From Eledone cirrhosa (lineage: Eukaryota), in NCBI GenBank assembly GCA_964016885.1, contig OZ024745.1, forward strand, positions 54,808,001 to 54,872,000: 64,000 nt of DNA. The letters run 5' to 3'. A program made the position numbers and the translations under genes. Below, piece after piece: positions 10,356 to 64,000 of this stretch. Each line of letters opens with the position of its first letter. Positions within the stretch are counted from its first letter, which is position 1. Below the pieces are notes generated by a model. That model was given only the letters and a program-made list of their open reading frames with translations. It did not search any database and was not told the origin of the DNA.

Positions 10356-13300
10356 ATGACCTCACTCAGAATAGGCAGCATAAATGCGCGTGGCTTGGGG
10401 TCGTCATGGAAGCAGGGCCACCTGCTCAACGACCTCAGGTCACTAAACATAGACGTAGTGGCCATCAGCGAGACCAGAATCTCCGAAGCACGGGCCTTGG
10501 CACCGATCTTCGGCGGCTACGATGTGTACGCATCTCCAAGCCGTCCTTGATCGGGGGGGGGGGGGAGTTGCTGTGCTTTTTCGGAGAGGTTTGGATCTCG
10601 CCATACGGGCCATCGTCCTGGACCCAGAAGGTAAGTTGGTGGTGCTGGACGTGACCAGCGGAGAAGGGCAAGCTTTCAGGCTAGTGGCCGTCTATGCCCC
10701 GACAGGAACAGGGCGGCCTGATTTCTTCCGGCGTCTGGAGACCTCTCTTGGAACGTCCCGCTCTTTAGTGTTAGTGGGCGACTGGAACGGGATCTTAGAT
10801 GCACGCTGGGACTGTGTGGGATTAGCGGATAGGGGAGGAGGGGCAAGAGCCTCACCAACCTGCTCAGGCGTTTTGAACTGTCTGACATGTACCGATTGGA
10901 TTTCCCGAATGTGCCAATGTGGACTTGGACAAATCGCATAGGGTCATCCAGATCATATCTAGATAGAGTATTTTGTAGGGAAATAGATAGGTCTAGCATA
11001 AGCTGTCCACAATTGAAGATAGTCAGCTACACGGACCACAAATTCGTGATCTGTGTGCTTGACTGAGATAGGCTTCATAGACGAGGACCCGGCTACTGGA
11101 AGCTAAACACGTCCTTACCAGCGCCGCAAGGCCTACAGAGACCGGATTAGCGAACTAGTTAAGCGAGCGTTGACGAGGGCCATCGTCAACAACAATTAGT
11201 GGTTTGCTCTGCAAAGAGCGATTTGAATAGAGTCCATTAGGTTTAGTAAGGCTTTAGTTATAGAGAAAAATAGAGCAGAGGGAGAACTAGTTACAAAATT
11301 AGACGAGGCGCTTAGCAAAGGCATCGCGGCCGACGTACTTGCGGCGAAATTGGCCCTCAACGAATTCTTCAATGCAAAGCACGAAGGCGGCGTTGTCAGA
11401 GCTAGGGTGCGTGCTCTCAGAAACGAGGGGACGAAAGCCGATCAATGGGCCCGAGTGGCGGAGGCACGTCGTGGCAACAAAGGCACGATCCGGTCTTTGG
11501 TGGACCACGACGGGCGCATGCTACTCGATCCCGGGAAAATGTATGAAGCTTTTCAGCGACACTTCGCTCAATTGTTCGGGGGCAGCGGCGGGCCGGATCG
11601 AGGGATGGACTTTAGTGTCTACCTCGACGGACTGCCGCGGCTCTCAGCCACTGAGGCGGAGTGTTGCGAAAAGCCGATAACAACCGCTGAAGTACGGGAG
11701 GCAATGACTGGCTGCACAAGGGGTAAATCGCCTGGTTTGGATGGTCTGCCATATGAACTTTACGTACAAATGCCAGACCTGTTCGGAGGCCTCTTGGCGG
11801 ACGTCTACTGAAACTGGCAACAGAACGCGAGAATTCCCAGCACTGTGAGCCGAGGAGCGGTGGCGCTGCTGAGAAAGGATCTGAACAAGGGGGATAACAT
11901 AGATAATATTAGGCCCATAACTCTGCTAAATACAGAGTTCAAGATTTTGGCCAAGGTGCTAGCAAAGAGGTTGGCGCTTGTCGTTGGTGGTCTGGTGGGA
12001 GAGGCGAAGACATGCGCCATTCCCGACAGATCCATCCACGATAACCTCCACCTCATACGATACATCGTAGAGAGGGTAGCTAGGGAACCTGGCACGGGTG
12101 GGTCCTTGATCAATTTAGATCAGTCGAAATCTTTCGATAGGGTCGACCATCGTTACCTAGCGGCAGTCCTCAGTGCGGCTGGCTTTGGGCCCGTCTTCAG
12201 AGGCTGGATCGCTGCCATGCACAGCGACATCTGCTCTGTGGTGAGAGTGAACGGTCACCTTTCGGAACCGTTCAACATCATGCGCTCGGTCCGCCAAGGA
12301 TGTCCCCTCTCGTCACTCTTGTACGTATTGACTCTCGAGCCATTACTGCACAAACTGGAGACGTTGAGGTGGGTCCCGCGCGAACTAGGATACGGAAGAT
12401 CCGTGTCAGCTATGCGGACGATGTCACCGTAGTGGTGTCGAACGCCAAACAATCGAGGCGATCGGCACTACACTAAGAGAATACGAAGCGGTGACAGGAG
12501 CAATGATCAACCAGGAAAAGTCAGTGGGCCTGCAGCTCGGCACCTGGAGAGGCATGTCCATGCCGTCCAATAGCGTCGTCGGGCGCTGGACGGACGGACC
12601 GGTTAAATTGCTAGGGGTCTGGTTCGGTCCGGACCTCCAGACAGACAAAAACTGGGACGAGGTGACGAGCAGGGTGGCTTCTATCACCCAGAAATGGGCG
12701 GAGTGGAAGCTATCCCTGAAAGGTCGAGCGGAGGTGGCGAACGCGTACATCGCGTCCGTCTTCTACTACCGCCTGACCGTTGTACCTTGTCCTAAGCCCC
12801 GCCTGACGGCGCTGGAGCGTTTGCTCTTTCGCTTTTTGTGGAATAGACGCGCCCCGATGATCAGGCTGTCCATCTGCTGTCAACACCCTCTATGTGGAGG
12901 GCTGGACATGCCGTGGCTGAAGATGCGCAGACACGCACTCTGGCTACGACATCTTCACCTCTTCATCGACGGTGATCAGGTGTGGTCGCCGTTTGCTAGA
13001 CACGTCTTTACCCAGCTCGTCTCCTTGACGGAGCCTGAGTCCTGGGCCAAGCGAAGACCAAGAGGGAGCGCTTGGAGACTGGAATGTCTTCAGACGCTCA
13101 CAGCCCTCGACCAATCGGGCAATGTGATCGGTGGAAACTCCACCTTGGCGTTCTATAAAGGATTAGTGAAGTGGAAGAGCGACGACGTACTTGGAGAAAC
13201 TCTAGGTATCGACGAAAATCAGCCAATCACTTCGGAAGGACTTTCCGGCCGGGTCCTACGGTCAACTTCCAGAAATCCCTGGCCTGGCAGTGCTACCGAG

Positions 13301-13759
13301 GAGCTTTGCCAGTTCGGGATAAACTCTACAGGCATGGAGGTGCTGTCAGTCGGGCATGTCCGAGATGCGCGCAGGGCGACGAAACCGTCCTGCACGCACT
13401 CGTCCAGTGTCCGAGCATTGCTGACCTGTGGGTTTATGTCGAACACCTGCTGTCACGTGTAGGACGGATCCAGCTATCAGCTGAGTGCATTGTGAGGAAT
13501 GCCTCGCCCTCTTCCTTTAGCCGGGAAGGGCAGGCAGTTTTATCTGGCGAAAGAGATAGTATGGAGGACACGTTTGAAAGGGCTGAAGACGAGGACTTAC
13601 CTCTTCAGTGATGCCCTGATTAACTTTTTCAAATTTCATTTGAAAAGGAAAATCAGGGTAGAGAGGGAAGTGCTCGCTTACCAGCATTTTGTTGAAAGAT
13701 GGGTGAGAGAAGCAAGAATGGCCCGAGTGAATGGGCCTACTCTGACTATGTATCTGTAA
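10356..13759 (+). pseudogene. Tx1-like ORF2 (APE endonuclease + reverse transcriptase), several frameshifts and stops
   Basis: MTSLRIGSINARGL...ISETR; VYAP; GDWN; SYLDR; TDHK; KSPGLDGLPYE; RPITLLN; LDQSKSFDRVDH; RQGCPLS; YADD; split over at least 7 ORF pieces. Confidence 0.93.
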
Positions 13760-17251: not shown

Positions 17252-19310
17252 CTTTGACGATAAACTCCGTCAGTTGCAGACTGTGCATCAACATGAGTTA
17301 TGTTTCTCCACAGAGTTCGATCACCAACAGCAGAGTTTAAAAAGCAATTGAAGTCCATAAGTTGATATTATCAAGCCATTGTTTTGGCTACCCGCTTCTG
17401 CTTCTCTTACCAGCCAACCTTCCTTCCAGGCATAACCTACTCACATCACCACAAGTTGATCTTTTTATATGACCTTATAGTTACTGTAGTCTTGAGCCGA
17501 AAATTGATGTAATTGGTAAAAGTCTGGTAATGTTGAGCAGCTCACTGATACAGATATGGTCGCTGAGCCGCTTGCCAGTCATGAGTCTCATGGAGTATTT
17601 CTGGAATGTAGAGAACTTCTAAAGTGACCTTGTCCAGAGTCAAGACCATATAACACAACTGGTAGGATGTAAGTATTAAGATCTTAGCCTTCAAATAATA
17701 GAAAACTCGTTTTGATGTTAGTACTTCCTTGTTCTTGTTGAAACCTGCCCAACCTAGAGTGATACGATACTGCGCAGCAACCATTCCATTGTTGTTTGAT
17801 GATAGTTTGTGATCGAGATTTACAAACTCTGTAACTAGAGTAATTTGCTGGTTGTAGATTGTGAGTTGGAGATTGACATTGTTGTTTTCAGTTGTCACAC
17901 ACTTTGTTTTGGTGATGTTAATGCGCATGCCAACCACCAGCGATTGTTTGGCCAGTACATTCAGAAAGTTTTGTAGATCAGTTCTAGAGTAACTCATGAT
18001 GGCCAGATCGTCTGCATAGCTAAGATTTAATAGGATTTTACCTCCTATTTGAAATCCAGAGGAGCATTGTTCTTCTGTTTGGTATATAAATGCAGCTATA
18101 ACTATACAGAAAAGTAGTGCTGATAGTACACCCATCCTGATTAACTCCTTTCAAAATGTCTATACAGCCTGTAGTTTCCCAGTCTGTTTTGTTATATGCT
18201 GTTGAGTTGGTGTAAGTTTCTTCCAGTAGGTTGATGTATTTTTAGTTAATTGAGGTCTGGTTTAAGATTTGCCACAAGGTAGGTAGTTTCACGTTACCAA
18301 AATCTCTTGTGAACTCAATGAAAATGATTGCACAGGGTTGTTGAATTCTATTGATTTCTCAATGATTTGTTCAAAAGCTAGGATCTGCTCAATGGCGCCC
18401 CTTCCAGATTGATACGCAACTTGTATTTCAGGAAATGAGGCGTAAAGGTCTGACTTCACTCGTGCTTCAATGATACTCATGAAAAGCTTGTAAACGTGAC
18501 TCAATAGGCTGATAGGACGATAGTTCCCACAATCAAGTCTGCTCTCTTTTTTGTAGAGTGCAACTATTAATGCTTGCTTGAACATGGCTGGGCCTTCCCT
18601 GTAGTGATAATATAGATAAAAAGATGTTGAAGTGCTTTTCGCAATTGGTTCACCCCCAGCTTTGATGAATTCTGAGTACATATTGTCCATTCCATGGCTT
18701 TTTCCTCACATTTTTTGATGGCATGAGATATCTCGCTAGCTAAGATATATGGAATGGCATCTGATGTCGAATCATGAATAGTTGTTGGTTCTGAGTTGCT
18801 GAAATATAGTTCTTCATAGAACTTAGCCCAGCGTTCTAGGATATTATCTATCCTTAATGTTGTTGTACATTTGCTTAAGTTTGTCTGATTTAAAGTGTTT
18901 TGTTTATTCAGCCTTTGCTACTCTATATTGGGCTGATGTGTGGCCACATTCTCTTCTGATTCTATGTTTTTCAGATATTGCTTTCTTTGTTGATGTGGCA
19001 TCCATTGTGGGATGGAAATATTTTCCTTAGGTAAAATCTCTTTAAATACCTCTTTTATGTTTCTGCAGATAGTTTCATAAATCTTACCGAAGCCTTCAAA
19101 GCTGAAAAGCGGTTTTGCAACTCGAGTTTGTATCGGGATGCTGTTTCGTTACATGAGAGTTTGACTAAGTTAACTTTCGCTGGTATTTTATTTTTTTGTG
19201 GCCAAACAAAGTTGATGTGATGTTCAGATATATCAAGAGCTTTAAGAGCAGTGCTGTCTAATATGCTTAGGCTTGCTGAAGGTTTTATTGCTATTATGAA
19301 GTCAATTTCT
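17252..19310 (-). mobile_element. 5'-truncated, decayed RTE-clade LINE
   Basis: CGNYRPISLLSHVYKLF...QIIEKSIEFN (18289-18690); LSYADDLA...GMRINITKTK (17542-18135); both ends flanked by (TA)n/(CA)n. Confidence 0.88.
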
Positions 19311-25263: not shown

Positions 25264-28155
25264 ATCTAGATCGTATGTAGATAGGTTCTTTATTAAGCCA
25301 GTAGGTAAGGATAGGTTGTCCACATATTCAAATGTTCGCCTATTCATATCACAAGTCTGTGATCTGCGTCGTTGACCTAGATAGGACACGCAAGTTAGGA
25401 CCTGGATACTGGAAGCTGAACATGTCATTCCCGGTACGTAAAGTTTACATAGACCGAGTCATCAATTTAATTAAGCAAAATTTGACAAGGGACGTCGTCA
25501 ATAACATGTGGTGGGGACTCTCAAAAGAGAGATAAGAGCAATGCCGAGGGTGAAATGGTAGCTAAATTAGACTAGCTTATTAGTAGTGGCATTACAACTG
25601 ACGTACTAGTGGTGAGAATGTCATTAGACCGTTTCTTTAATGCAAAACACGAAGGTTGCATTGTCAGAGATAAGAAACGAGAGAACTGAAGCTGTTCGAA
25701 GGACCCGCATATCGGATGCTTCAGCGTTGTAACAAAAACAACAATTCGGTCTTTGACGGACCAAGACGAAGGTGAGCTGAACATATTCCATGCAGGTTTG
25801 TGAGGCCTCTCGCAGTCATTTTGCTCAGCTGTTCGGGGAGAGCTGGGGATCGGAGACGGTGACTGATTTCAATACCTACCTCGATTGCCTACCGTGCCTT
25901 TTACCAGTCAATACTGGGCGCTGCGAAAGGCCGATAACATCAGTCGAGATTGGTGATGCCCTATTCAACTGCACATGGCGCAAGTCACGCGGTTTGGATG
26001 GTCTGCCCCAAGACGTTTACATAGACATGCTAAACTTGTTCTCCGATCTCCCCGAAGCGCTCTACTGCAACTAGCAACAGAGCTGGAATATTCCCAGTTC
26101 TGTGAGCCGGTGCGTAGTGACGCTCATAAAGTAAAACGAGAAAAAGAGAGATACATTAGACAAGTTCAGGCCAATAACTCTGCAAAACACCGAGTCTAAG
26201 ATTTTGGCCAAGTTGTTAACGAAGATGTTGGCGAACGTAGTCGAGGATATGGTTGGGGAGGCACAAACTTTGGCAATCCCGATCAGGTCCATACATGACA
26301 ATGTCGACCTCATACGATATATCATAGAGAGTGCATGGTGTAAATCTGGCTTCGGTGGGGCTCAGATCAATTTAGATCAATCGAAAGCTTTCGATAGCGT
26401 TGACCATCGATACATGGAGAATATCCCCAAGGCAGCTGGCTTCGGTCTCGTCTTCAGAGGTTGCGTCTACTGGGTGGTCAAAGTTAATGGCCATCTTTCA
26501 GAACCGATTCAGATCCGATCGGTCCGTCAATGATGCCCTCTCTCCTCCCTTCTGTAAGTATTGACTATCGAGCCTTTACTGTGAAAGCTAGAGCTGTTGC
26601 AGGGCATCACACTCAAACCAGGACGTGGAAGAGCGGTGTGGGATTATGCGGACGATATCAACGTAATTGTGTCGAGCACCTCGGAAATAGATGTTTCCGA
26701 CACTTGTTGTGAGGAATATGATGGGTTGAGGGGTGCAAAACTAAAAACCGGAAAAGCCGGTGGGCTTGCAGCTCGGCACCTAAAGAGGCAAGTCCCCACT
26801 GTTCAACAGCAGTGTAGGTCACTTGACGGAAGGACCGGTAAAGTTGATCGGGGTCTGGTTCGAACCAGGTATCCAGGTGGATAAGAATTGGGACGATATT
26901 ACAATCAGGGTGGCCGCTCTCACTCGGAAATTGCCCGAAAGAAAGCTGGCTCTAAAAGAGCGAGCGGAGGTCGTGGATGCGTACATCGCGTACGTCGTCT
27001 ATTACCGCCTGACCGTCGTACTTTGCCCACGTTCGCACCTCATCAAATTGGAATGGCTTTTTTTCAACTTCTTATGGAAGGGACTAGTTCCGTTAGTGAG
27101 AAGGTCCACCTGCTGCCAGCACCCTCTACGTGGAGGGCTGGCCATGCCGTGGCTAATGATGCGTAAACATGCGCTGGGCTTGCGGCATCTTCAGATACAC
27201 AAAATGGTGAACAGGTGTGTTGTCAGGCGCTCACTGCCCTCTGATTAGCGGGCAATGTGGGCAGTGGAACTTCCACTTTTGAGTTTTATAGAGGATTGGA
27301 GATGGGCAAGTGCGATAGAGGGGCTCTGGGCGTATACGAAGTCGAACTGACGAGTCTGTTCCGGAGTACGTTTGAAACGGAGACTACGGATAACTTCCAA
27401 AAATCTCTCACTTGACACTGCTACCGGGGAGCATTACCGGTTCGAGATAGACTACATGCGTGGACGTACTGCCAGCCGGACCTGCGCCAGATGCGCGCCG
27501 GACGACGAAATCATTCTGCACCAACTCTTTCAGTGCATTACTGACCTGTGGAGGTATGTCGAACAGCTGTTCTATCGTTTGAGGCGGATGTGGTCATCGA
27601 TCCTTTCCACAGTGAGGATCGCCCCATCACCTTCATTTGACTGGTGGTTGTAGAGAAAGAGGTTGTGTAGTGGACCACGTTGGAAGGACTGAAGACGGAA
27701 ACCTTTCTTTTTGGCAAACATTTCAGGGTTTTCATGTTTCACTTGGAAAGGAAGATGAGAGTGGGGAGAGAAGCTGCTGCAGCCCTGTACCTTTGCTAAA
27801 TAGTGGGTGAATGTGGCAAGAATAGCCCACGTGAATGGGCCTGCTCTAAGCTTGCGCGTGTGGGCTGGTTAACTTGAGCAGGAGAGGGGTGTTTTTCTAG
27901 AGTGCCCTTGAAGCGCCAGCTGGTTCAGAATTGGTGGGGTACGTGAGTTTCTCTAGGTACTTCACCTCCTATTGGGAAATTTGTTTTGGCATATTTTTAT
28001 ATATCTCATATTTGTTTACAATTTTGTCATTGTTAATTGATTTTGTTATTGTATATCTTTACACGAATTTAATTGTAAAATCCCACTGTCCCTGACTTTG
28101 TAGTGTCCTTTATATGTTAGCCCTTGTGACCAATAAAAGTAATCATTATTATTAT
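25264..28155 (+). mobile_element. Tx1-like LINE, rest of ORF2 and 3' UTR (heavily decayed)
   Basis: SRSYVDRF, GPGYWKLN, LDQSKAFD, YADDI (26645), EGPVKLIGVWF; ends AATAAAAGTAATC(ATT)n like the 8.4-14 kb copy. Confidence 0.9.
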
Positions 28156-43340: not shown

Positions 43341-43915
43341 AGAATTCACATAAATCAAAGTTCTGTTCAAACCATTTATTAGCTTACAATTGTTTCATCC
43401 AAACCGAGGTTTGGGGTCTTCGGAGCAATTTTTCAATGTTTGTTTACATACATGACCTCCTTTCCAACACAAGAGACATACAGATACATATGTATATATT
43501 GATGCACAGTGGGGTGACATCCATTATATTATTTTTGCATGGCAATTTAAATTCAAAAATTAAAATCATATTAAAGCACAATCAAAGCAAAATTTAAATT
43601 AAAATACAATATCGGCAGTTTACATTAGCTTCGTAAACTGCCGATGTTGTATTTTAATTTTAATTTTGCTTTGATTCTGTTTTAATATGATTTTAATTTT
43701 TGAATTTAAATTGCCATGCAAAAATAATATAATGGATGTCACCCCACTGTGCATCAATATATACATATGTATCTGTATGTCTCTTGTGTTGGAAAGGAGG
43801 TCATGTATGTAAACAAACATTGAAAAATTGCTCCGAAGACTCCAAACCTCGGTTTGGATGAAGCAATTGTAAGCTAATAAATGGTTTGAACTGAACTTTG
43901 ATTCATGTGAATTCT
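43341..43915. mobile_element. 575-bp palindrome (283-bp arms, 9-nt loop) of a Penelope-like pseudo-LTR, one hammerhead motif per arm
   Basis: Arms 43341-43623 and 43633-43915 are near-perfect reverse complements; each ends HHR-AATAAA-...GAATTC-(TA). Confidence 0.8.
43382..43426 (-). ncRNA. Minimal hammerhead motif (U4C core, GUA site); mirror copy at 43830-43874 (+) has GAAA changed to GAAG
   Basis: GCT-CCGAAGA-C-CCCAAACC-TC-GGTTTGGA-T-GAAA-CAATTG-TA-AGC; palindromic stem III CAATTG. Confidence 0.65.
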
Positions 43916-44102: not shown

Positions 44103-44702
44103 TCCGAATTTCCAATCTTTTATGAAGAGAAACCGTTGGTAATACCATTTTGGACATGTGAATATTTAAATCGTATTTTAATTTATTTAAAAGATTGTAT
44201 AATGTTTGCTTGTTCTGCTCATGTCATTTTTATAGTTCTGGTATCTCAAATTAGTACCATTGAACAACAATTGTATTATAGACACCCTATATATTTCCGT
44301 AGGTTCTTAGTACCTGTAGGAATATTAATCTCATTTTATGTATATTCTCCCTCTGTGTAGAGAAGAAAATGTTGTATGTTGCTGGTATTCGTTTTAGTGG
44401 CGTGACAGACAACAAGTCTATAATATTTCCGCTTTTACTGACAGTCTGTTTATGTGTGGGTCACTTTAACGGCCTGACCTCATACTTCATGCAATAAGCG
44501 ATATATTTATAACTTTAGGCTTTACGCCCTATAGAATGGAAATAGTTATCTGAAGAGCTGATCTTTGCATTGGAAATTCTCCGAATTTCCAATCATTTGT
44601 GAAGCGAAACCGTCGGTAATAGCATTCTGGACAGGTGAATATTTAAATCGTATTTTAATTCATATAAAAGATTGTTTAATGTTTGCTTGTTCCGCTTATC
44701 TC

Positions 44703-44705
<3 letters not shown>
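44103..44705 (+). mobile_element. Retrozyme/Penelope-like non-coding element: 477-nt unit with 126-bp direct terminal repeats, inserted in (TA)n
   Basis: 44103-44228 matches 44580-44705 at an exact 477-nt offset; the repeat spans the 3' half and cleavage site of a hammerhead; (TA)n on both sides. Confidence 0.75.
44533..44628 (+). ncRNA. Type I hammerhead ribozyme, canonical core
   Basis: AGAAT-ggaaata-GTTAT-CTGAAGA-GCT...ATTGGAAATT-ctccg-AATTTCCAAT...AGC-GAAA-CCGTCGG-TA-ATAGC-ATTCT; GUA cleavage after 44618. Confidence 0.8.
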
Positions 44706-44801
<96 letters not shown>

Positions 44802-44889
44802 AATAAGGAACTGATTATGCAGAGCGGTTGCGGGTCAAGCAGAAATTGAAAATTAGAATTGGTGCTCTGAAATACCGATATATATATGA

Positions 44890-44927
<38 letters not shown>

Positions 44928-45004
44928 TCATATATATATCGCAACCGCTCTGCATAATCAGTTCCTGATTATTACTAGAATTCTATAAGAATCAAACATT
45001 CATG

Positions 45005-45099
45005 ATTTTCAGCAAACAGGTGGAGTAGTTAGCTTTGATAAGCACCAAAAAGTGCGAAACAGAGCTCTGTCAGCTTTATCTCCCCTGTTTGCTGAAAAT
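45005..45099 (+). ncRNA. Extended type I hammerhead ribozyme with compensatory U3-A8 core
   Basis: 16-bp perfect outer stem (45005-45020/45084-45099), GGAG/CTCC, internal loop, AGCT-TTGATAA-GCAC-caaaaa-GTGC-GAAA-CAGAGCTCTG-TC-AGCT; GUC cleavage after 45071. Confidence 0.85.
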
Positions 45100-45245
45100 T
45101 AAAGTAAGTGAGATTGTCACTACTCTAAAATAATAGCGTAAGGTCTTCGAAATGCTTTTAATTAAGCATACAGTGTATTGCAAAATACACTATATATACA
45201 TTCATATATATATATGAATGTATGTATAGTATATTTGGCAATATA

Positions 45246-45303
<58 letters not shown>

Positions 45304-59397: not shown

Positions 59398-62300
59398 CTA
59401 CAGGCTGATATAGAGAGAAGGCCCATTCACTCGGGCCATTCTCGCTACTTTCACCCATCTTTCATAAAACTTTCTGGGGTAGAGCACCTCTCTCTCCATT
59501 CTGATCCTTCTTCTAAAGTGGTACTTGAAAAAAAAGACCAGTTGTTGGCCGGAGAGATAGGTGTCTGACCTCAGCCTTTTCAACCTTGTCCACCATACAA
59601 CTTCTTTCGCCATGGCTATCACACAGAGGAAAACCGCCTCTCCTTCGTTTTTGAAAGGGGGAGGCGGTTTGATTGTGACAATGTTCTCGGTGGTCAACCG
59701 GATTGGTCCCACCCGCAACAGTAGTCGTTCTAAATAGCCCCACAGGTCAGCAACGCCCGGGCAGTGTACGAATGCGTGTGCGACGGTTTCTTCGTCCCGC
59801 ACGCATCTTGGACAGATCTTCTTCGAGGGGTCCCTACCCGGGCGCCCGTGTCTGTAGAGCTTGTCCCGAACGGGTAGAGCTCCTCGGTAACATTGCCAAG
59901 CCAGGGACTTTTGGAAGTTGTCCATCGGTCCCGGGCCAAACGTCCTACCGAACAGACTGGCCAGCTCGTATTCCTCCATGCCCAGAGCCTCTCCGAGAGC
60001 GTCGTCGCACTTACTGCGCACCAACCCTCTATAGTATGTTGAGGTTGAGTCTCCACTGATTGCCGGATCCGCTTGCCAGAGGGCCGTGAGCGCTTGGGCA
60101 CATTCAATGTGCCAGTCGCCCACTTTTCTCGGTCTTTGCTTGACCCAGGATTGCAGCTCGGTGAGTGAGACGAGTCTCGGAAAGGTTCGCCTCACAGACA
60201 GGGCCCACACCGGCTGACCGGTGAGGAATACCTGGAGGTGCCGTAGCCTTAATGCGTGTCTACGCATCGTCCGCCACGGCATCCCCAGCCCTCCGTTGGA
60301 AGGGTGTTGACAGCAGATGGATCTTCACACCAAAGGAGCCCGCTTCTTCCAAAGAAATCGGAAGAGCGCGCGCTCCATTTTGGCGAGTGTTTTCTCTGGG
60401 CAAGGCACGACGGTCAAGCGGTAGTAGATGACGGACGCTATATAAGCGTTCGCCACCTCCGCTCGACCTTTCAGGGATAGTTTGCACTCGGCCCACTTCT
60501 GGGCGAGTGCAAACACCTTGCCCGTTACCTCGTCCCAGTTTTTCTCCACCTGGAGGTCCGGTCCGAACCAGACCCCGAGCAGCTTCACCGGTCCCTCCGT
60601 CCAGCGTCCGACGATGCCGTCGGAGGGCATCGTTTTGCCCCTCCACGTCCCGAGTTGCAAACCGACGGACTTGTCCCGGTTCAGCTTGGCTCCTGTGAAC
60701 CTTTCATATTCCTCCAGTAAGGTGCCGATCTGCCCGATTTCCGAGGCGCACGACACCATTACTGTCACGTCATCGGCGTAGGCCGACACCGCTTTCCGCA
60801 ATCCCGGTTCCAAGGGGATGCCCTGCAACAGCCCCAGCTTCCTCAGTAGTGGCTCGAGAGCCAGCACATACAGGAGGGAGGAGAGAGGGCATCCCTGTCG
60901 AATGGATCGCGTGATTTGGAACGGCTCCGAGAGGTAGCCGTTCACCTTGACCCTCGAGCAGGTGTTGCTGCTGTGCATTGCAGCAATCCAGCCCCTGAAA
61001 ACGGCTCCGAAGCCTGCCGCCACGAGCACCGCATCCAAGTACCGATGGTCAACCCTATCGAACGCTTTAGATTGATCCAAGTTGATCAGGGCCCCACCAA
61101 TGCCGGGTTCGTTCCCTACCCTCTCTATGATGTATCGCATGAGATGGAGGTTGTCGTGAATGGACCTGGATGGGATGGCGTATGTCTGCGCATCTCCCAC
61201 CAGGTTCCCGACGACATGCGCCAACCTCTTCGCTAACACCTTGGCCAAAATCTTTAACTCTGTGTTTAGCAGAGTTATGGGCCTGAAGTTATCTATGTCA
61301 TCCCCCTTGTTCTCGTCCTTCCTCACCAGCGTGACTACGCCCTTGGTCACAGAACTGTGAATTCTCCCGTTCTGTTGCCAGTTGCAGTAGACCGCCTCGA
61401 GGACACCGGAGAACAAACCCGGCATCGCTACATAAAGTTCGTATGGTAGACCATCGAGACCCGTAGATTTGCGTTTGCCGCATTGGCTCAGCGCTTCCCC
61501 TATTTCAGCGGCTGAAATCGGCCTCTCGCAGGACTTGGCCTCCCCGTCCGAGAGCCGCGCCAGACCGTCGAGGTATGGACCGAAATCCATGGCCCCACCC
61601 GGCCCGCCGCCCCTCCCGAACAGTCGTGCAAAGCGCCGTTGAAAGGCCGCGCTCATCCGCTCAGGTTCAAGGACCACGCGTCCATCCTGGTCCTTCAAAG
61701 ACCGAATCGTGGACTTGTTTCAACTTTTTGCCTCTGTCACTCGGGCCCAGCTAACAGCTTTGGCTCCCTCGTTACCCAGAGCACGTATTTTACTCCTGAC
61801 AACGCAGCCCTCGTGCTTCGCATCAAAGAACTGGTCTCGGGCCGTTCTTGACGCCAGCACGCCGGCCACGTTGCCACTCCTAATCGCCTCTTCTACTCTA
61901 TTTGTTAATTCCCTTTCAGTTCTATTCCTATCTGATGCTAATTCCCGACTAAAACCTATCGATTCTATTCTAATTTCTCTCTTGAGAGAGCCCCACCACC
62001 TGTTGTTGACAATTGCCCTCGTCAGACGCTGCTTAACTAGTGTGCTAATCCGCTTACTGTAAGCTTTGTTTGTCGGTAAAGACAAGTTCAGCTTCCAGTA
62101 ACCGGGTCCCTGTCTATGAGTTCTATCAAGGTTGACCACTCCGGTCAACAACTTGTGATCCGAATAGTCAACCATGAACATTCGTGGACAGCTTAATATG
62201 TCCCTATCCTTATTTTTAACTAGGAACCTATCTAGGTACGACCTGGATGTTCCACTGCGATTACTCCACGTCCACCGTGGCACAGTCGGAAAATCCAGTC

Positions 62301-62835
62301 GATATCTATCGGCCAGATCAAATCGGCCGATTAATCGTTTGAGGCTGTTACACCCCCCTCTATCGGGACATGCCCCTACATAGTCCCAACGTGCATCCAG
62401 GATACCATTCCAGTCCCCCACTAAAAGCAAGGAGCGAGACGTTCCCAGGAAATTCTCCAGGCGTCGGAAGAAGTCTGGTCGTGGTGTCCCCGATGGGGCA
62501 TACGCTGCCACAAGCCTGAAAGCTCCACCTTCACCTCTGCCGACGTCTAAAACCACCAGTCGACCCTCCGGGTCCAGGTGTACCTTCTGTGTGGCAAGAC
62601 CCAGGTATTTTCGCAGCAGAACGACAACCCCACCCCCACCCCTCGGCTGACAGAGAGATGCGTAGATCTCAAAGTCGTCGAAGATGGGGGCCAGTTGGCG
62701 CTCGCTGCTGATCCTGGACTCGCAAATAACCATTACATCCACTCTGTGCGACCTGAGGTCATTTAAGAGTTTGCCCTGTTTCCAGGACATCCCCAAGCCG
62801 CGTGCATTCACACATCCAACTCTTATATTGGCCAT
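59398..62835 (-). pseudogene. Tx1-like ORF2 (APE + RT + C-terminal Cys motif), two frameshifts
   Basis: Three consecutive ORFs: 62835-61720 (APE: NARGL, GDWN, SYLDR, SDHK), 61698-60325 (RT: QGCPLS, YADD), 60282-59398 (CPRC..EETVAHAFVHC). Confidence 0.93.
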
Positions 62836-62873
62836 GTTGGTGCTGAAGAGGTAAAAAGGAAGAGGAAAGGAAA

Positions 62874-64000
62874 TTACTTACCTCTTCTTCTCCTGGGGGC
62901 CAGGCTGCACAATTTCCATGGGGTGTTGGAAGGGTTGTTTGGTGGGGTGGTGGTTTGTAGTGGGGTGAGGACATCAGTGTGTGGTGGGATTAGGGTGTTT
63001 GGTGGGGTGTGGGTGTCTGTTGTGGGGGTGGGGAAACATCTCAATAGGACGCTGTTATGTGGTTTGGTGCAGTTGGTCCCCACATGCATTGGATGGTTCT
63101 TTTTCAAGGTTACATAGGTTTCCGTTGGGACCCTAATCATTATTAGGTGCGGTTTCTTCGCTGCGTAGGTGAAAGTGATCCCTTCGGTTTCCACCGAAGG
63201 GTTATTTTCTATCGCTTTCATCAGCGTTTTATTGTTCTTGTTAATGTATGTATAGAGTTTTTGTTGTGTTGTGTTTGTTTTTGTTTGTTGTTCTTGTGCG
63301 TGTTTGCGTTTTGTAGTACGTGTTATGTTTTGAGGAGGGTTGGGTTTTTTATTTATGATGTTTGTTCTGTTTGTGCTGGTGGCTGTGTGTTTGTGGCATT
63401 TTTGTTAATGTGGTGCCTTTTTTTTTTCCTTTTCACCTGTTGAAAGGGTTCTCCCTCGTCGTCACTGGGTGACGTTGATACGGAGTCCTCTTCCGTGTTG
63501 TTGGGCAGGGGTATATTTCGGGGTTTTGTTGTGGTTGCTTTTGTATTTGTTTTAGGTGGGGAGGGGTTGGGTGGAACAGTGTTTTGTGTTGTTATTTTTC
63601 CTTGTTGTTGTTGTTGTTGTTGTGGTGGTGGTGGTGGTGGTGGTTGTGTTGTGTTCGGGGTTGGCAGAAGAGCCTTTTTTTTTACTCGTTAATTGAGGAC
63701 AGGCATCCCTCAGGTGACCCCTGCTTAAGCAGTGTTAACATGATGGCCGCCTTCCCTCCACTGAATTGTTTATATAAGTTAGCCCGTCCAGAGGCACGCG
63801 TTGTGGGATATTCGCTATTCGTTCTGGGCTCATTTGCACCAGAACTTCTACGCTGGTCCCACCAAATACACCCCCGGAGGACTTTCCTATTGAAATTATC
63901 TTGTCTTCGTCAAAGTTAATTATTCCACATAGTATCCACCAAATATTTAGATTTGGTGTGATACTCATTATTTTTATTCTGTGTCCTTTTCCCCCTGTAT
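62874..64000 (-). pseudogene. Tx1-like ORF1 (partial, disrupted)
   Basis: GTSVEVLVQM...NSVEGRRPSC*HCLSRGHLRDACP aligns with GTSIEMLIE...SVEGKRPKCFRCGSKTHLKAFC of the 8.4-kb element; stop codon inside the knuckle. Confidence 0.75.

Follow-up and report, generated by a model that had tools for sequence, protein, structure and literature searches.

At positions 45005-45099 of a 64,000-nt stretch of the Eledone cirrhosa genome (contig OZ024745.1; in the following, the window), a hammerhead-like sequence is found with U and A at core positions 3 and 8, instead of the C and G that strict CUGANGA descriptors call for. The locus raises the question of whether this core is rare and compensated, as the original prediction had it, and whether the motif stands alone or is part of a larger element in which this base pair has a history of its own. 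Comparison with its many relatives in the same genome makes it quite probable, in our judgement, that the motif is the hammerhead carried by one young copy of a multi-copy, non-coding repeat of about 320 nt which is likely mobilised in trans by Penelope-like elements (PLEs), that the ribozyme has likely been kept active by selection on source copies, and that U3-A8 is one of two interchangeable pairs.

Structure of the hammerhead motif

All features that had originally been described could be read directly from the sequence, on the forward strand (Table 1). Positions 3-9, 12-14, 15.1-16.1 and H17 have the sequence of a hammerhead core with a Watson-Crick 3-8 pair, and cleavage is predicted directly 3' of C17 (45071). 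All three helices can form, with stem I open. The latter starts distally with a helix of 16 bp (45005-45020 with 45084-45099), followed by a bulged T45021, a GGAG/CTCC helix (45022-45025 with 45080-45083) and an internal loop (TAGTT, 45026-45030, and TTAT, 45076-45079); its proximal part has only four Watson-Crick pairs, followed by U-U oppositions. Stem III can form 4 bp with a tetraloop as a monomer, or 12 bp as a dimer. In the alignment, the window ribozyme shows no difference from the majority sequence of the youngest subfamily, A1.

Table 1. Positions in the window of the hammerhead motif, the insertion that carries it and the adjoining sequences
Feature	Position	Strand	Basis
Type I hammerhead motif with extended stem I	45005..45099	+	Sequence, sub-threshold HH9 match, subfamily alignment
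Proximal stem I, AGCT/AGCT (45031-45034 with 45072-45075)	45031..45075	+	4/4 pairs changed on both sides across subfamilies
Core TTGATAA = U3-U4-G5-A6-U7-A8-A9 (U3 = 45035, A8 = 45040)	45035..45041	+	Sequence
Stem II, GCAC (45042-45045), loop CAAAAA, GTGC (45052-45055)	45042..45055	+	Pairing probability ~1.0; 4/4 pairs changed on both sides
G12-A13-A14 and palindromic stem III (45059-45070); GAA-A at 45056-45059	45056..45071	+	Sequence
Forward arm, 275 of ~320 nt, one hammerhead	44941..45215	+	BLAST to real monomer
Inverted arm belonging to this insertion, with the upstream portion of the unit and its tail region	44800..44900	-	BLAST and subfamily alignment
Fragment of an older C3-G8 (C-type) copy	45204..45251	-	38/39 nt match the C1 majority, versus 31/34 for A1
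(TA)n array at left end of insertion	44705..44802	.	Sequence
Further (TA)n arrays	44878-44939, 45191-45301		
GTAAGT, splice-donor-like hexamer, 33 nt past the cut site	45104..45109	+	Sequence

At the Rfam gathering score, no match was found in the whole 64-kb window. Below threshold, the motif matched Hammerhead_HH9 (RF02275), a conserved intronic ribozyme of amniotes, at 24.3 bits, where the gathering score is 52 (E=0.0002 for a sequence of 116 nt). The two share the type I topology and an identical loop II, but HH9 has a C3-G8 pair and a proximal stem I of 6 bp, whereas the window motif has U3-A8 and 4 bp. The bulge in stem I reads UAG in the window copy and UAC, as in HH9, in sister copies. 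The motif is indeed missed by strict CUGANGA searches, as had been anticipated, and equally by Rfam at its gathering score. The miRNA-like Rfam matches near the motif were discarded as artefacts of TA palindromes.

The motif is part of a multi-copy repeat

A search of the 3.0-Gb genome of the same species with a 141-nt query gave 1,742 first-look candidates, of which the best 40 by score are 97-100% identical. A 22-mer lying 3' of the ribozyme has 4,569 matches genome-wide, a number of matches and not of insertions, many of which are two-armed. A single-copy or domesticated ribozyme like HH9 could be rejected in view of these thousands of young copies. The repeat unit is non-coding, and in real tandem copies the head-to-tail period is 313-321 nt. 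The motif of the original prediction is one part of a mobile, Penelope-type repeat, a context that had been missed.

The window copy consists of a forward and an inverted arm, which share a private T>C change. Its forward arm is identical to the A1 majority at 263 of 266 nt, and ends at the first of the two 3' end sites described below, where it runs into a TA tract. This young copy has likely inserted into the TA end of an older C-type copy, judging from the reverse-strand fragment adjoining it. Since it carries a single hammerhead only, the window copy could not excise a monomer on its own and is probably a dead-end insertion.

Downstream of the ribozyme, the hexamer GTAAGT is present in 106 of 115 trimmed copies, although this count is biased since the hexamer was part of the search anchor. 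An acceptor-like TTTCAG, about 120 nt further on, was found in 71 of the 115; it belongs to the tail region, of which an inverted copy lies near 44861-44877 of the window. Both motifs are kept across subfamilies, and could delimit a retained intron as in other PLEs.

No host gene is evident from the open reading frame lists of 43.0-52.5 kb, which are not a gene prediction. Just upstream of the insertion, the window contains an inverted repeat with arms of 124 nt (97%; 43500-43756) and a direct repeat of 126 nt (90%; 44103-44228 and 44580-44705), both ending at TA tracts; these are probably other Penelope-type insertions. LINE-type fragments were identified at 59398-62877 (-), 10459-13611 (+), 26135-27248 (+) and 17542-18705 (-), and in the copy at 59-63 kb the endonuclease and RT domains are in separate frames.

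Elsewhere in the genome, three copies with the same flanks lie 3.3-3.5 kb apart (L002-L004, G000:C12:11.678-11.686 Mb), host DNA having been duplicated in tandem together with the element. They were considered as full-length PLE tandems and rejected, as the flanks are duplicated host DNA and no ORF was found in a scan of L031-L032. A decayed copy of the old type with a deletion in the core (L242, G000:C27:17.514 Mb) lies in antisense orientation immediately downstream of an extended C2H2 zinc-finger array, and was rejected as a parent element, being one decayed copy beside that array. Contigs from sequencing runs X1 and X4, for which the library type is not on record, cover the unit, but neither ends nor spliced forms are seen in them, which speaks neither for nor against expression. 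In X4 a single contig accounts for ~398 of the ~430 depth over the hammerhead (L024:1525-1639), which would fit one dominant locus if run X4 were RNA, while X1 is mixed; an X4 contig also covers the decayed copy at L242.

Insertions have the anatomy of Penelope-like elements

The ends of the repeat were mapped on a set of 293 unique arms of at least 46 nt and at least 88% identity to a reference, taken from loci that were mostly picked for an intact core. The 5' starts are spread over the whole unit. The 3' ends are concentrated at two sites, with 109 arms ending at unit positions 135-144 (counted from the cut site) and 116 at 160-179, together 225 of 293. These two sites are about 26 nt apart, at ~144 and ~170 nt past the cut site, and in the loci read by eye (uncounted) the 3' ends run into (TA)n. 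The inverted arms form 110 pairs. Both ends lie at the two sites in 66 of these, and at least one end lies elsewhere in the other 44; 59 of the 66 classifiable pairs have one end of each site, leaving a one-sided tail of ~26 nt, or up to ~35 nt.

Partial tandems and 5' inversions are both present, which is the organisation of a PLE derivative. For PLEs, Craig et al. 2021 (PMC8557442) report copies in partial tandem, a 5'-truncated copy in inverse orientation, insertion at (TA)n and derivatives that are non-autonomous, together with a tail of 30-40 bp at one end only; the tail found here is at or below that length. According to Frangieh et al. 2024 (PMC11167929), the RT of a PLE starts internally at two sites, and the sequence between them makes up the tail. 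The resemblance to the insertions described in these two papers is close, as we find partial tandems, an inverted 5'-truncated arm, a tail at one end, (TA)n or AT-rich targets, two putative internal starts 3' of the hammerhead, and a non-autonomous derivative. The present unit differs in having no RT or GIY-YIG ORF, in its shorter tail, and in the position of the start sites, which for PAc lie ~85-92 nt past the cut site by subtraction from the coordinates given in PMC11167929.

Fragments of PLE ORFs (GIY-YIG and RT) from several PLE-like families are present in the genome and in the flanks of the repeat, in ten cases within 1.5 kb of it (L008, L009, L010, L028, L043, L047, L076, L100, L108 and L110). 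No autonomous partner sharing the unit sequence could be identified among the PLE ORF fragments at 10 loci and in 4 neighbouring stretches. It is improbable, in our opinion, that the copies are solo pseudo-LTRs, i.e. the 5'-truncated ends of an autonomous PLE, instead of an independent non-coding element. Most PLE hammerheads are indeed single and derive from truncated copies, as reported by Cervera and De la Pena 2014 (PMC4209133), but in none of the ten PLE-ORF flanks read by eye is the unit joined to the ORF as a terminal repeat, and long arms run upstream into a next unit in 70 core-independent and 106 other mapped loci.

The arms also bear on the template. Arms longer than one unit (88 of 293) and arms crossing at least two cut sites (14 of 293) imply that the template was a multimer or a circle. 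None is longer than about three units; copies are mostly dispersed 0.2-1.5-mers, and most of them read through the cut site. The same element could be a classical non-LTR retrozyme, in which double self-cleavage of tandem arrays would release monomers, and a circle would be the obligatory template; we regard this as possible but hold it only tentatively. Animal retrozymes (Cervera and De la Pena 2020, PMC7229834; Li et al., bioRxiv 10.64898/2026.07.22.740005) likewise are described with a non-coding unit of ~300-400 nt, one type I hammerhead, a head-to-tail period, low GC and a proposed dependence on PLEs, and Li et al. argue that retrozymes are PLE derivatives. The monomer length and low GC seen here fit this description (PMC7229834), and the period of 313-321 nt with one type I hammerhead and no ORF falls within the 170-400 nt of retrozyme monomers. 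The long arms, from a sample mostly picked for intact cores, fit as well, as does a predicted circular monomer fold of -81.7 kcal/mol, versus a mean of -49.4 (sd 4.1) for 60 shuffles. That fold, however, is a row of local hairpins and not a rod, and uncut multimeric transcripts would explain the read-through equally well. Furthermore, retrozymes form tandem arrays, whereas the present copies are mostly dispersed, with 5' inversions and a PLE tail; tandem copies with at least two hammerheads are a minority (the 14 arms above), to which the window copy does not belong. Mobilisation by PLEs, from a multimeric or circular template, remains the reading that we pursue below.

Other hammerhead-like families were observed in passing. 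One, unrelated, also has a U3-A8 core (UUGAAAA), with a 4-bp stem II, a very short stem III and a GUA site. It has 9 + 1 matches in the loci examined, including L095 (reverse strand, near 2807), L223 and L245 (G000:C3:220.80 Mb), and one of its matches lies ~1.5 kb downstream of a GIY-YIG PLE ORF. The flanks of L021, L113, L134, L061, L056, L080 and L210 contain five or more additional families that resemble type I hammerheads and have C3-G8 cores. Penelope-type repeats are seen to pile up in the same TA tracts.

Two states of the 3-8 pair

A sister subfamily of the window repeat, 89% identical over 375 nt, has C3-G8. Genome-wide, U3-A8 cores have 1,332 exact matches to the young-type pattern, and 394 further matches to a pattern for other stem II bases, some of which are decayed young copies; C3-G8 cores have 1,405 exact matches. 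The mismatched states are C3-A8, with 48 matches genome-wide, and 7 when searched with the young-type pattern, and U3-G8, with 9 matches to the young-type pattern only. As these numbers come from differing patterns, they are only roughly comparable. The mismatched cores are scattered over many subfamily backgrounds, and no mismatched subfamily has been amplified. Their occurrence on many backgrounds, at a level that fits a post-insertion divergence of 2-6%, is as expected from decay after insertion. In 28 rows that were hand-picked to represent the subfamilies, the pair is C-G in 14 and U-A in 14.

The original prediction of a type I hammerhead with a compensatory U3-A8 pair is supported by the paralogs, in which positions 3 and 8 have changed together and not independently. 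Its description of the U3-A8 core as rare did not survive, given ~1,700 matches in the same genome and a published record since 2011: Perreault et al. 2011 (PMC3088659) report U3-A8 covariation in several natural hammerheads, and Cervera and De la Pena 2014 (PMC4209133) found ~1,300 U3-A8 motifs, mostly single, in the Cercyon PLE of Schistosoma mansoni. The claim that C3U together with G8A preserves the pair has to be divided. Activity of U3-A8 in vitro is cited by Perreault et al. (from Przybilski and Hammann 2007), but as a general rule the claim is overstated, because in one hammerhead that was subjected to a complete pairwise scan the 3-8 pair was rescued by the G-C swap alone and not by U-A (PMC9901934); rescue depends on context.

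The Cercyon hammerheads resemble those described here in being type I, in the U3-A8 pair, in their location in a PLE-type repeat, in a palindromic helix III and in a high turnover of the ribozyme (PMC4209133). They differ in being minimal motifs with a long helix II and almost no helix III, whereas here helices II and III are both of 4 bp and helix I is long; and the present hammerhead lies in a non-coding 320-nt unit in which no ORF was found. The U3-A8 examples of Perreault et al. are scattered, whereas here both states coexist and switch within a single family. With U3-A8 itself already known in nature, it is these two C-G/U-A switches in one family that are added here. A literature search, with most subscription journals outside its coverage, returned no paper that deals with this repeat family, or with a 3-8 pair that switched repeatedly within a lineage.

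Family tree analysis

From 199 unique hammerhead-bearing stretches, 115 cover most of the unit, and 103 were retained at one row per locus. Removal of four mismatched rows, and of 25 out of 51 rows from the larger U-A set, left 74 rows, and the tree was based on 216 columns outside the ribozyme. This tree requires two changes of the 3-8 state, which are forced by the starred branches. In none of 200 bootstrap trees would a single change suffice, and the AU test rejects a single group of the 33 U-A rows (p=0.00012; a quick tree had been seen before the test). One U-A group consists of 11 rows of subfamilies D and E, located beyond the C-type C-G copies. The other, with 22 rows including the subfamily of the window copy, is nested within the C-G copies of B type and shows the lowest divergence. 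The median is 1.9% for A1, 3.5% for B1, 5.7% for C1 and 10% for a mixed D set. The tree is unrooted, so that the first switch may have gone in either direction, but by these data the pair has switched between C-G and U-A at least twice. At least two switches in register mean that the ribozyme has likely been kept working.

Alternatively, the second U3-A8 origin could be no new double mutation but a core tract of 7-11 nt, transferred at once between related RNAs from the older U-A lineage by a template switch or by gene conversion; we think this rather unlikely. Such copying would explain why an intermediate subfamily is missing, the seven core bases are the same in young and old U-A copies (some sharing 3-4 more upstream), and template switches are frequent in these insertions. 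Nevertheless, in the earliest-branching young copies (L081, L094) the flanks of the core resemble the C-G subfamily B1 on both sides, so any copied tract must have been very short, and position 7 is a U in C-G subfamilies too.

Conservation and turnover within the ribozyme

Among the 28 hand-picked representatives, both partners have changed in nine of 12 pairs, and pairing is kept in 91.6% of the cells, compared to 10-42% for slid controls. The rows of this set are related, two D rows are misaligned at stem III, and the structure was taken from the window copy; few events, along a common lineage, stand behind the counts. Covariation is found in stems I and II. The pairs of stem III hardly vary, and provide no such evidence. 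While the stems turn over, with divergence up to 28%, U4, G5, A6, A9, G12, A13, A14 and A15.1 are invariant in all 28 rows, although the invariance of G5-A6, A9 and GAAA was partly fixed by the search patterns. The 10.1-11.1 pair is unpaired in 11 of the 28 rows, mostly in older subfamilies. In older subfamilies (e.g. L130, L180, L202) this position at the base of stem II is A-U, U-U, A-A or C-A and not G-C. Some of them have a GUU site, and yet these subfamilies were amplified to hundreds of matches.

Between the majority sequences of neighbouring subfamilies, the ribozyme has changed faster than the rest of the unit, i.e. 15/93 versus 10/215 differences for A2-B1, 7/96 versus 1/212 for B1-B2, and 21/92 versus 4/205 for C1-D. 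The difference is significant (p<0.05) in six of seven neighbour comparisons, with p=0.07 for C1-C2, and not significant for A1-C1 and A1-D, whose members are distant from each other. Copies of A1 have equal rates in the two parts (0.022 in the ribozyme and 0.021 in the rest), and within A2, B1 and C1 the ribozyme rate is 1.4-1.9 times higher than that of the rest. High sequence variability of PLE hammerheads has been noted before (Cervera and De la Pena 2014, PMC4209133).

Predicted folding

The motif region is predicted to be far more stable than its shuffled versions (z=-8.26; 0 of 200 shuffles as stable), showing that the structure is not due to chance. The original description as a textbook structure is correct for the layout of the motif, but overlooked that proximal stem I is so short and that the minimum-energy fold is an inactive one, in which the 5' half of stem III is taken up by pairing with the 5' strand of stem I and with U3-U4-G5. 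In the window copy the active hammerhead fold lies 3.5 kcal/mol above this minimum, from which proximal stem I is absent. An inactive minimum is also predicted for seven of eight subfamily representatives, with the active fold 0.7-14 kcal/mol higher, the value for D being 0.0. Since the energy model ignores tertiary contacts and Mg2+, these predictions call for caution and do not amount to a refutation. For stem III, a dimer duplex is predicted at -20.1 kcal/mol versus -1.8 for the monomer hairpin, and cleavage as a dimer through this palindromic stem is possible; animal type I motifs are known to cleave in this form (Cervera and De la Pena 2014, PMC4209133). The function at low Mg2+ that was originally put forward stands as a prediction, set against an inactive predicted ground state.

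The inactive predicted ground state speaks for a hammerhead that is dead or irrelevant, its structure serving only to bind a protein or persisting through common descent. The weak base pair in stem II of older subfamilies points the same way, as does the report that cleavage is dispensable for PLE insertion in vitro: in the experiments of Frangieh et al. 2024 (PMC11167929), hammerhead mutants were without effect on insertion, and RNA-seq gave no read ends at the cut site. We nevertheless consider a dead hammerhead very unlikely, as the catalytic core columns are invariant while the stems turn over (in part an effect of the search patterns), and the tertiary 3-8 pair, which has a role in the active fold alone, has switched in register twice. 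The inactive minimum, the failed U-A rescue (PMC9901934) and the dispensability in vitro do count against an active hammerhead. Further points against our explanation are the unpaired 10.1-11.1 position in older subfamilies, the tail of ~26 nt, the lack of an identified partner at the loci searched, and the finding of Li et al. (bioRxiv 10.64898/2026.07.22.740005) that only one of nine tested retrozyme dimers cleaved. Taken with these reservations, an active ribozyme is the interpretation that we follow.

Junctions at the cut site

A pattern for copies starting exactly at the base after C17 gave 20 matches, compared to 4 for a control site 41 nt downstream. The junctions were judged by eye: two substitutions, two microhomology deletions and one small insertion were dropped, and two twin-arm pairs were counted once each. 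This left 13 independent 5' junctions at the cut site and 3 at the control (one-sided binomial p=0.011). Two of these events involve both inverted arms, each beginning with the base 3' of C17. Inverted insertions with both arms starting right after the cut site were seen at L265/L266 (G000:C10:13.52 Mb), L267/L268 and L120/L121, and one such insertion has an A/T run of ~30 nt between its arms. Among the 293 arms, 5' starts within ~4 nt of the cut (a 9-nt window) are not enriched, with 9 seen versus ~8 expected. The sequence following the cut site begins with the palindrome AGCT, which favours microhomology joins. The excess of exact starts is a weak hint of cleavage in vivo, weak because there is one control site, a palindromic start and no excess in the 9-nt window.

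Proposed mode of propagation

We propose that tandem source loci would be transcribed, and that the hammerhead would cut these transcripts after C17, probably in part only or with help from a protein or from dimer pairing via the palindromic stem III; partial or assisted cutting is assumed because the predicted stability of the inactive fold is higher. The template could then be uncut multimers, or circles formed by re-ligation. The GIY-YIG nuclease of a PLE would nick (TA)n DNA, and its RT would start internally at the two sites past the cut. Joining of two cDNAs 5'-to-5' would produce the inverted insertion, with the tail on one arm.

Hammerheads in PLEs are conserved and yet, according to PMC11167929, not needed for insertion in vitro. 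The present family may record selection on the ribozyme within one lineage, in the form of at least two flips of the 3-8 pair without an amplified intermediate, a 2-12 times faster turnover that keeps the fold, and a minority of insertions starting at the cut site as a footprint of cleavage in vivo. On this proposal as a whole we are evenly divided; the in-register double switch and the cut-site starts would argue for in vivo selection on cleavage. If it is true, hammerhead activity would matter for Penelope-type mobilisation in the cell, even though it is dispensable in vitro. About half of the hammerheads in this repeat family are invisible to CUGANGA descriptors. Its near-isogenic natural C3-G8 and U3-A8 ribozymes, in units that are ~89% identical, bear on the context-dependent tolerance of the core, and if selection has acted as proposed, such matched pairs would offer natural material for testing how an RNA crosses a compensatory fitness valley.
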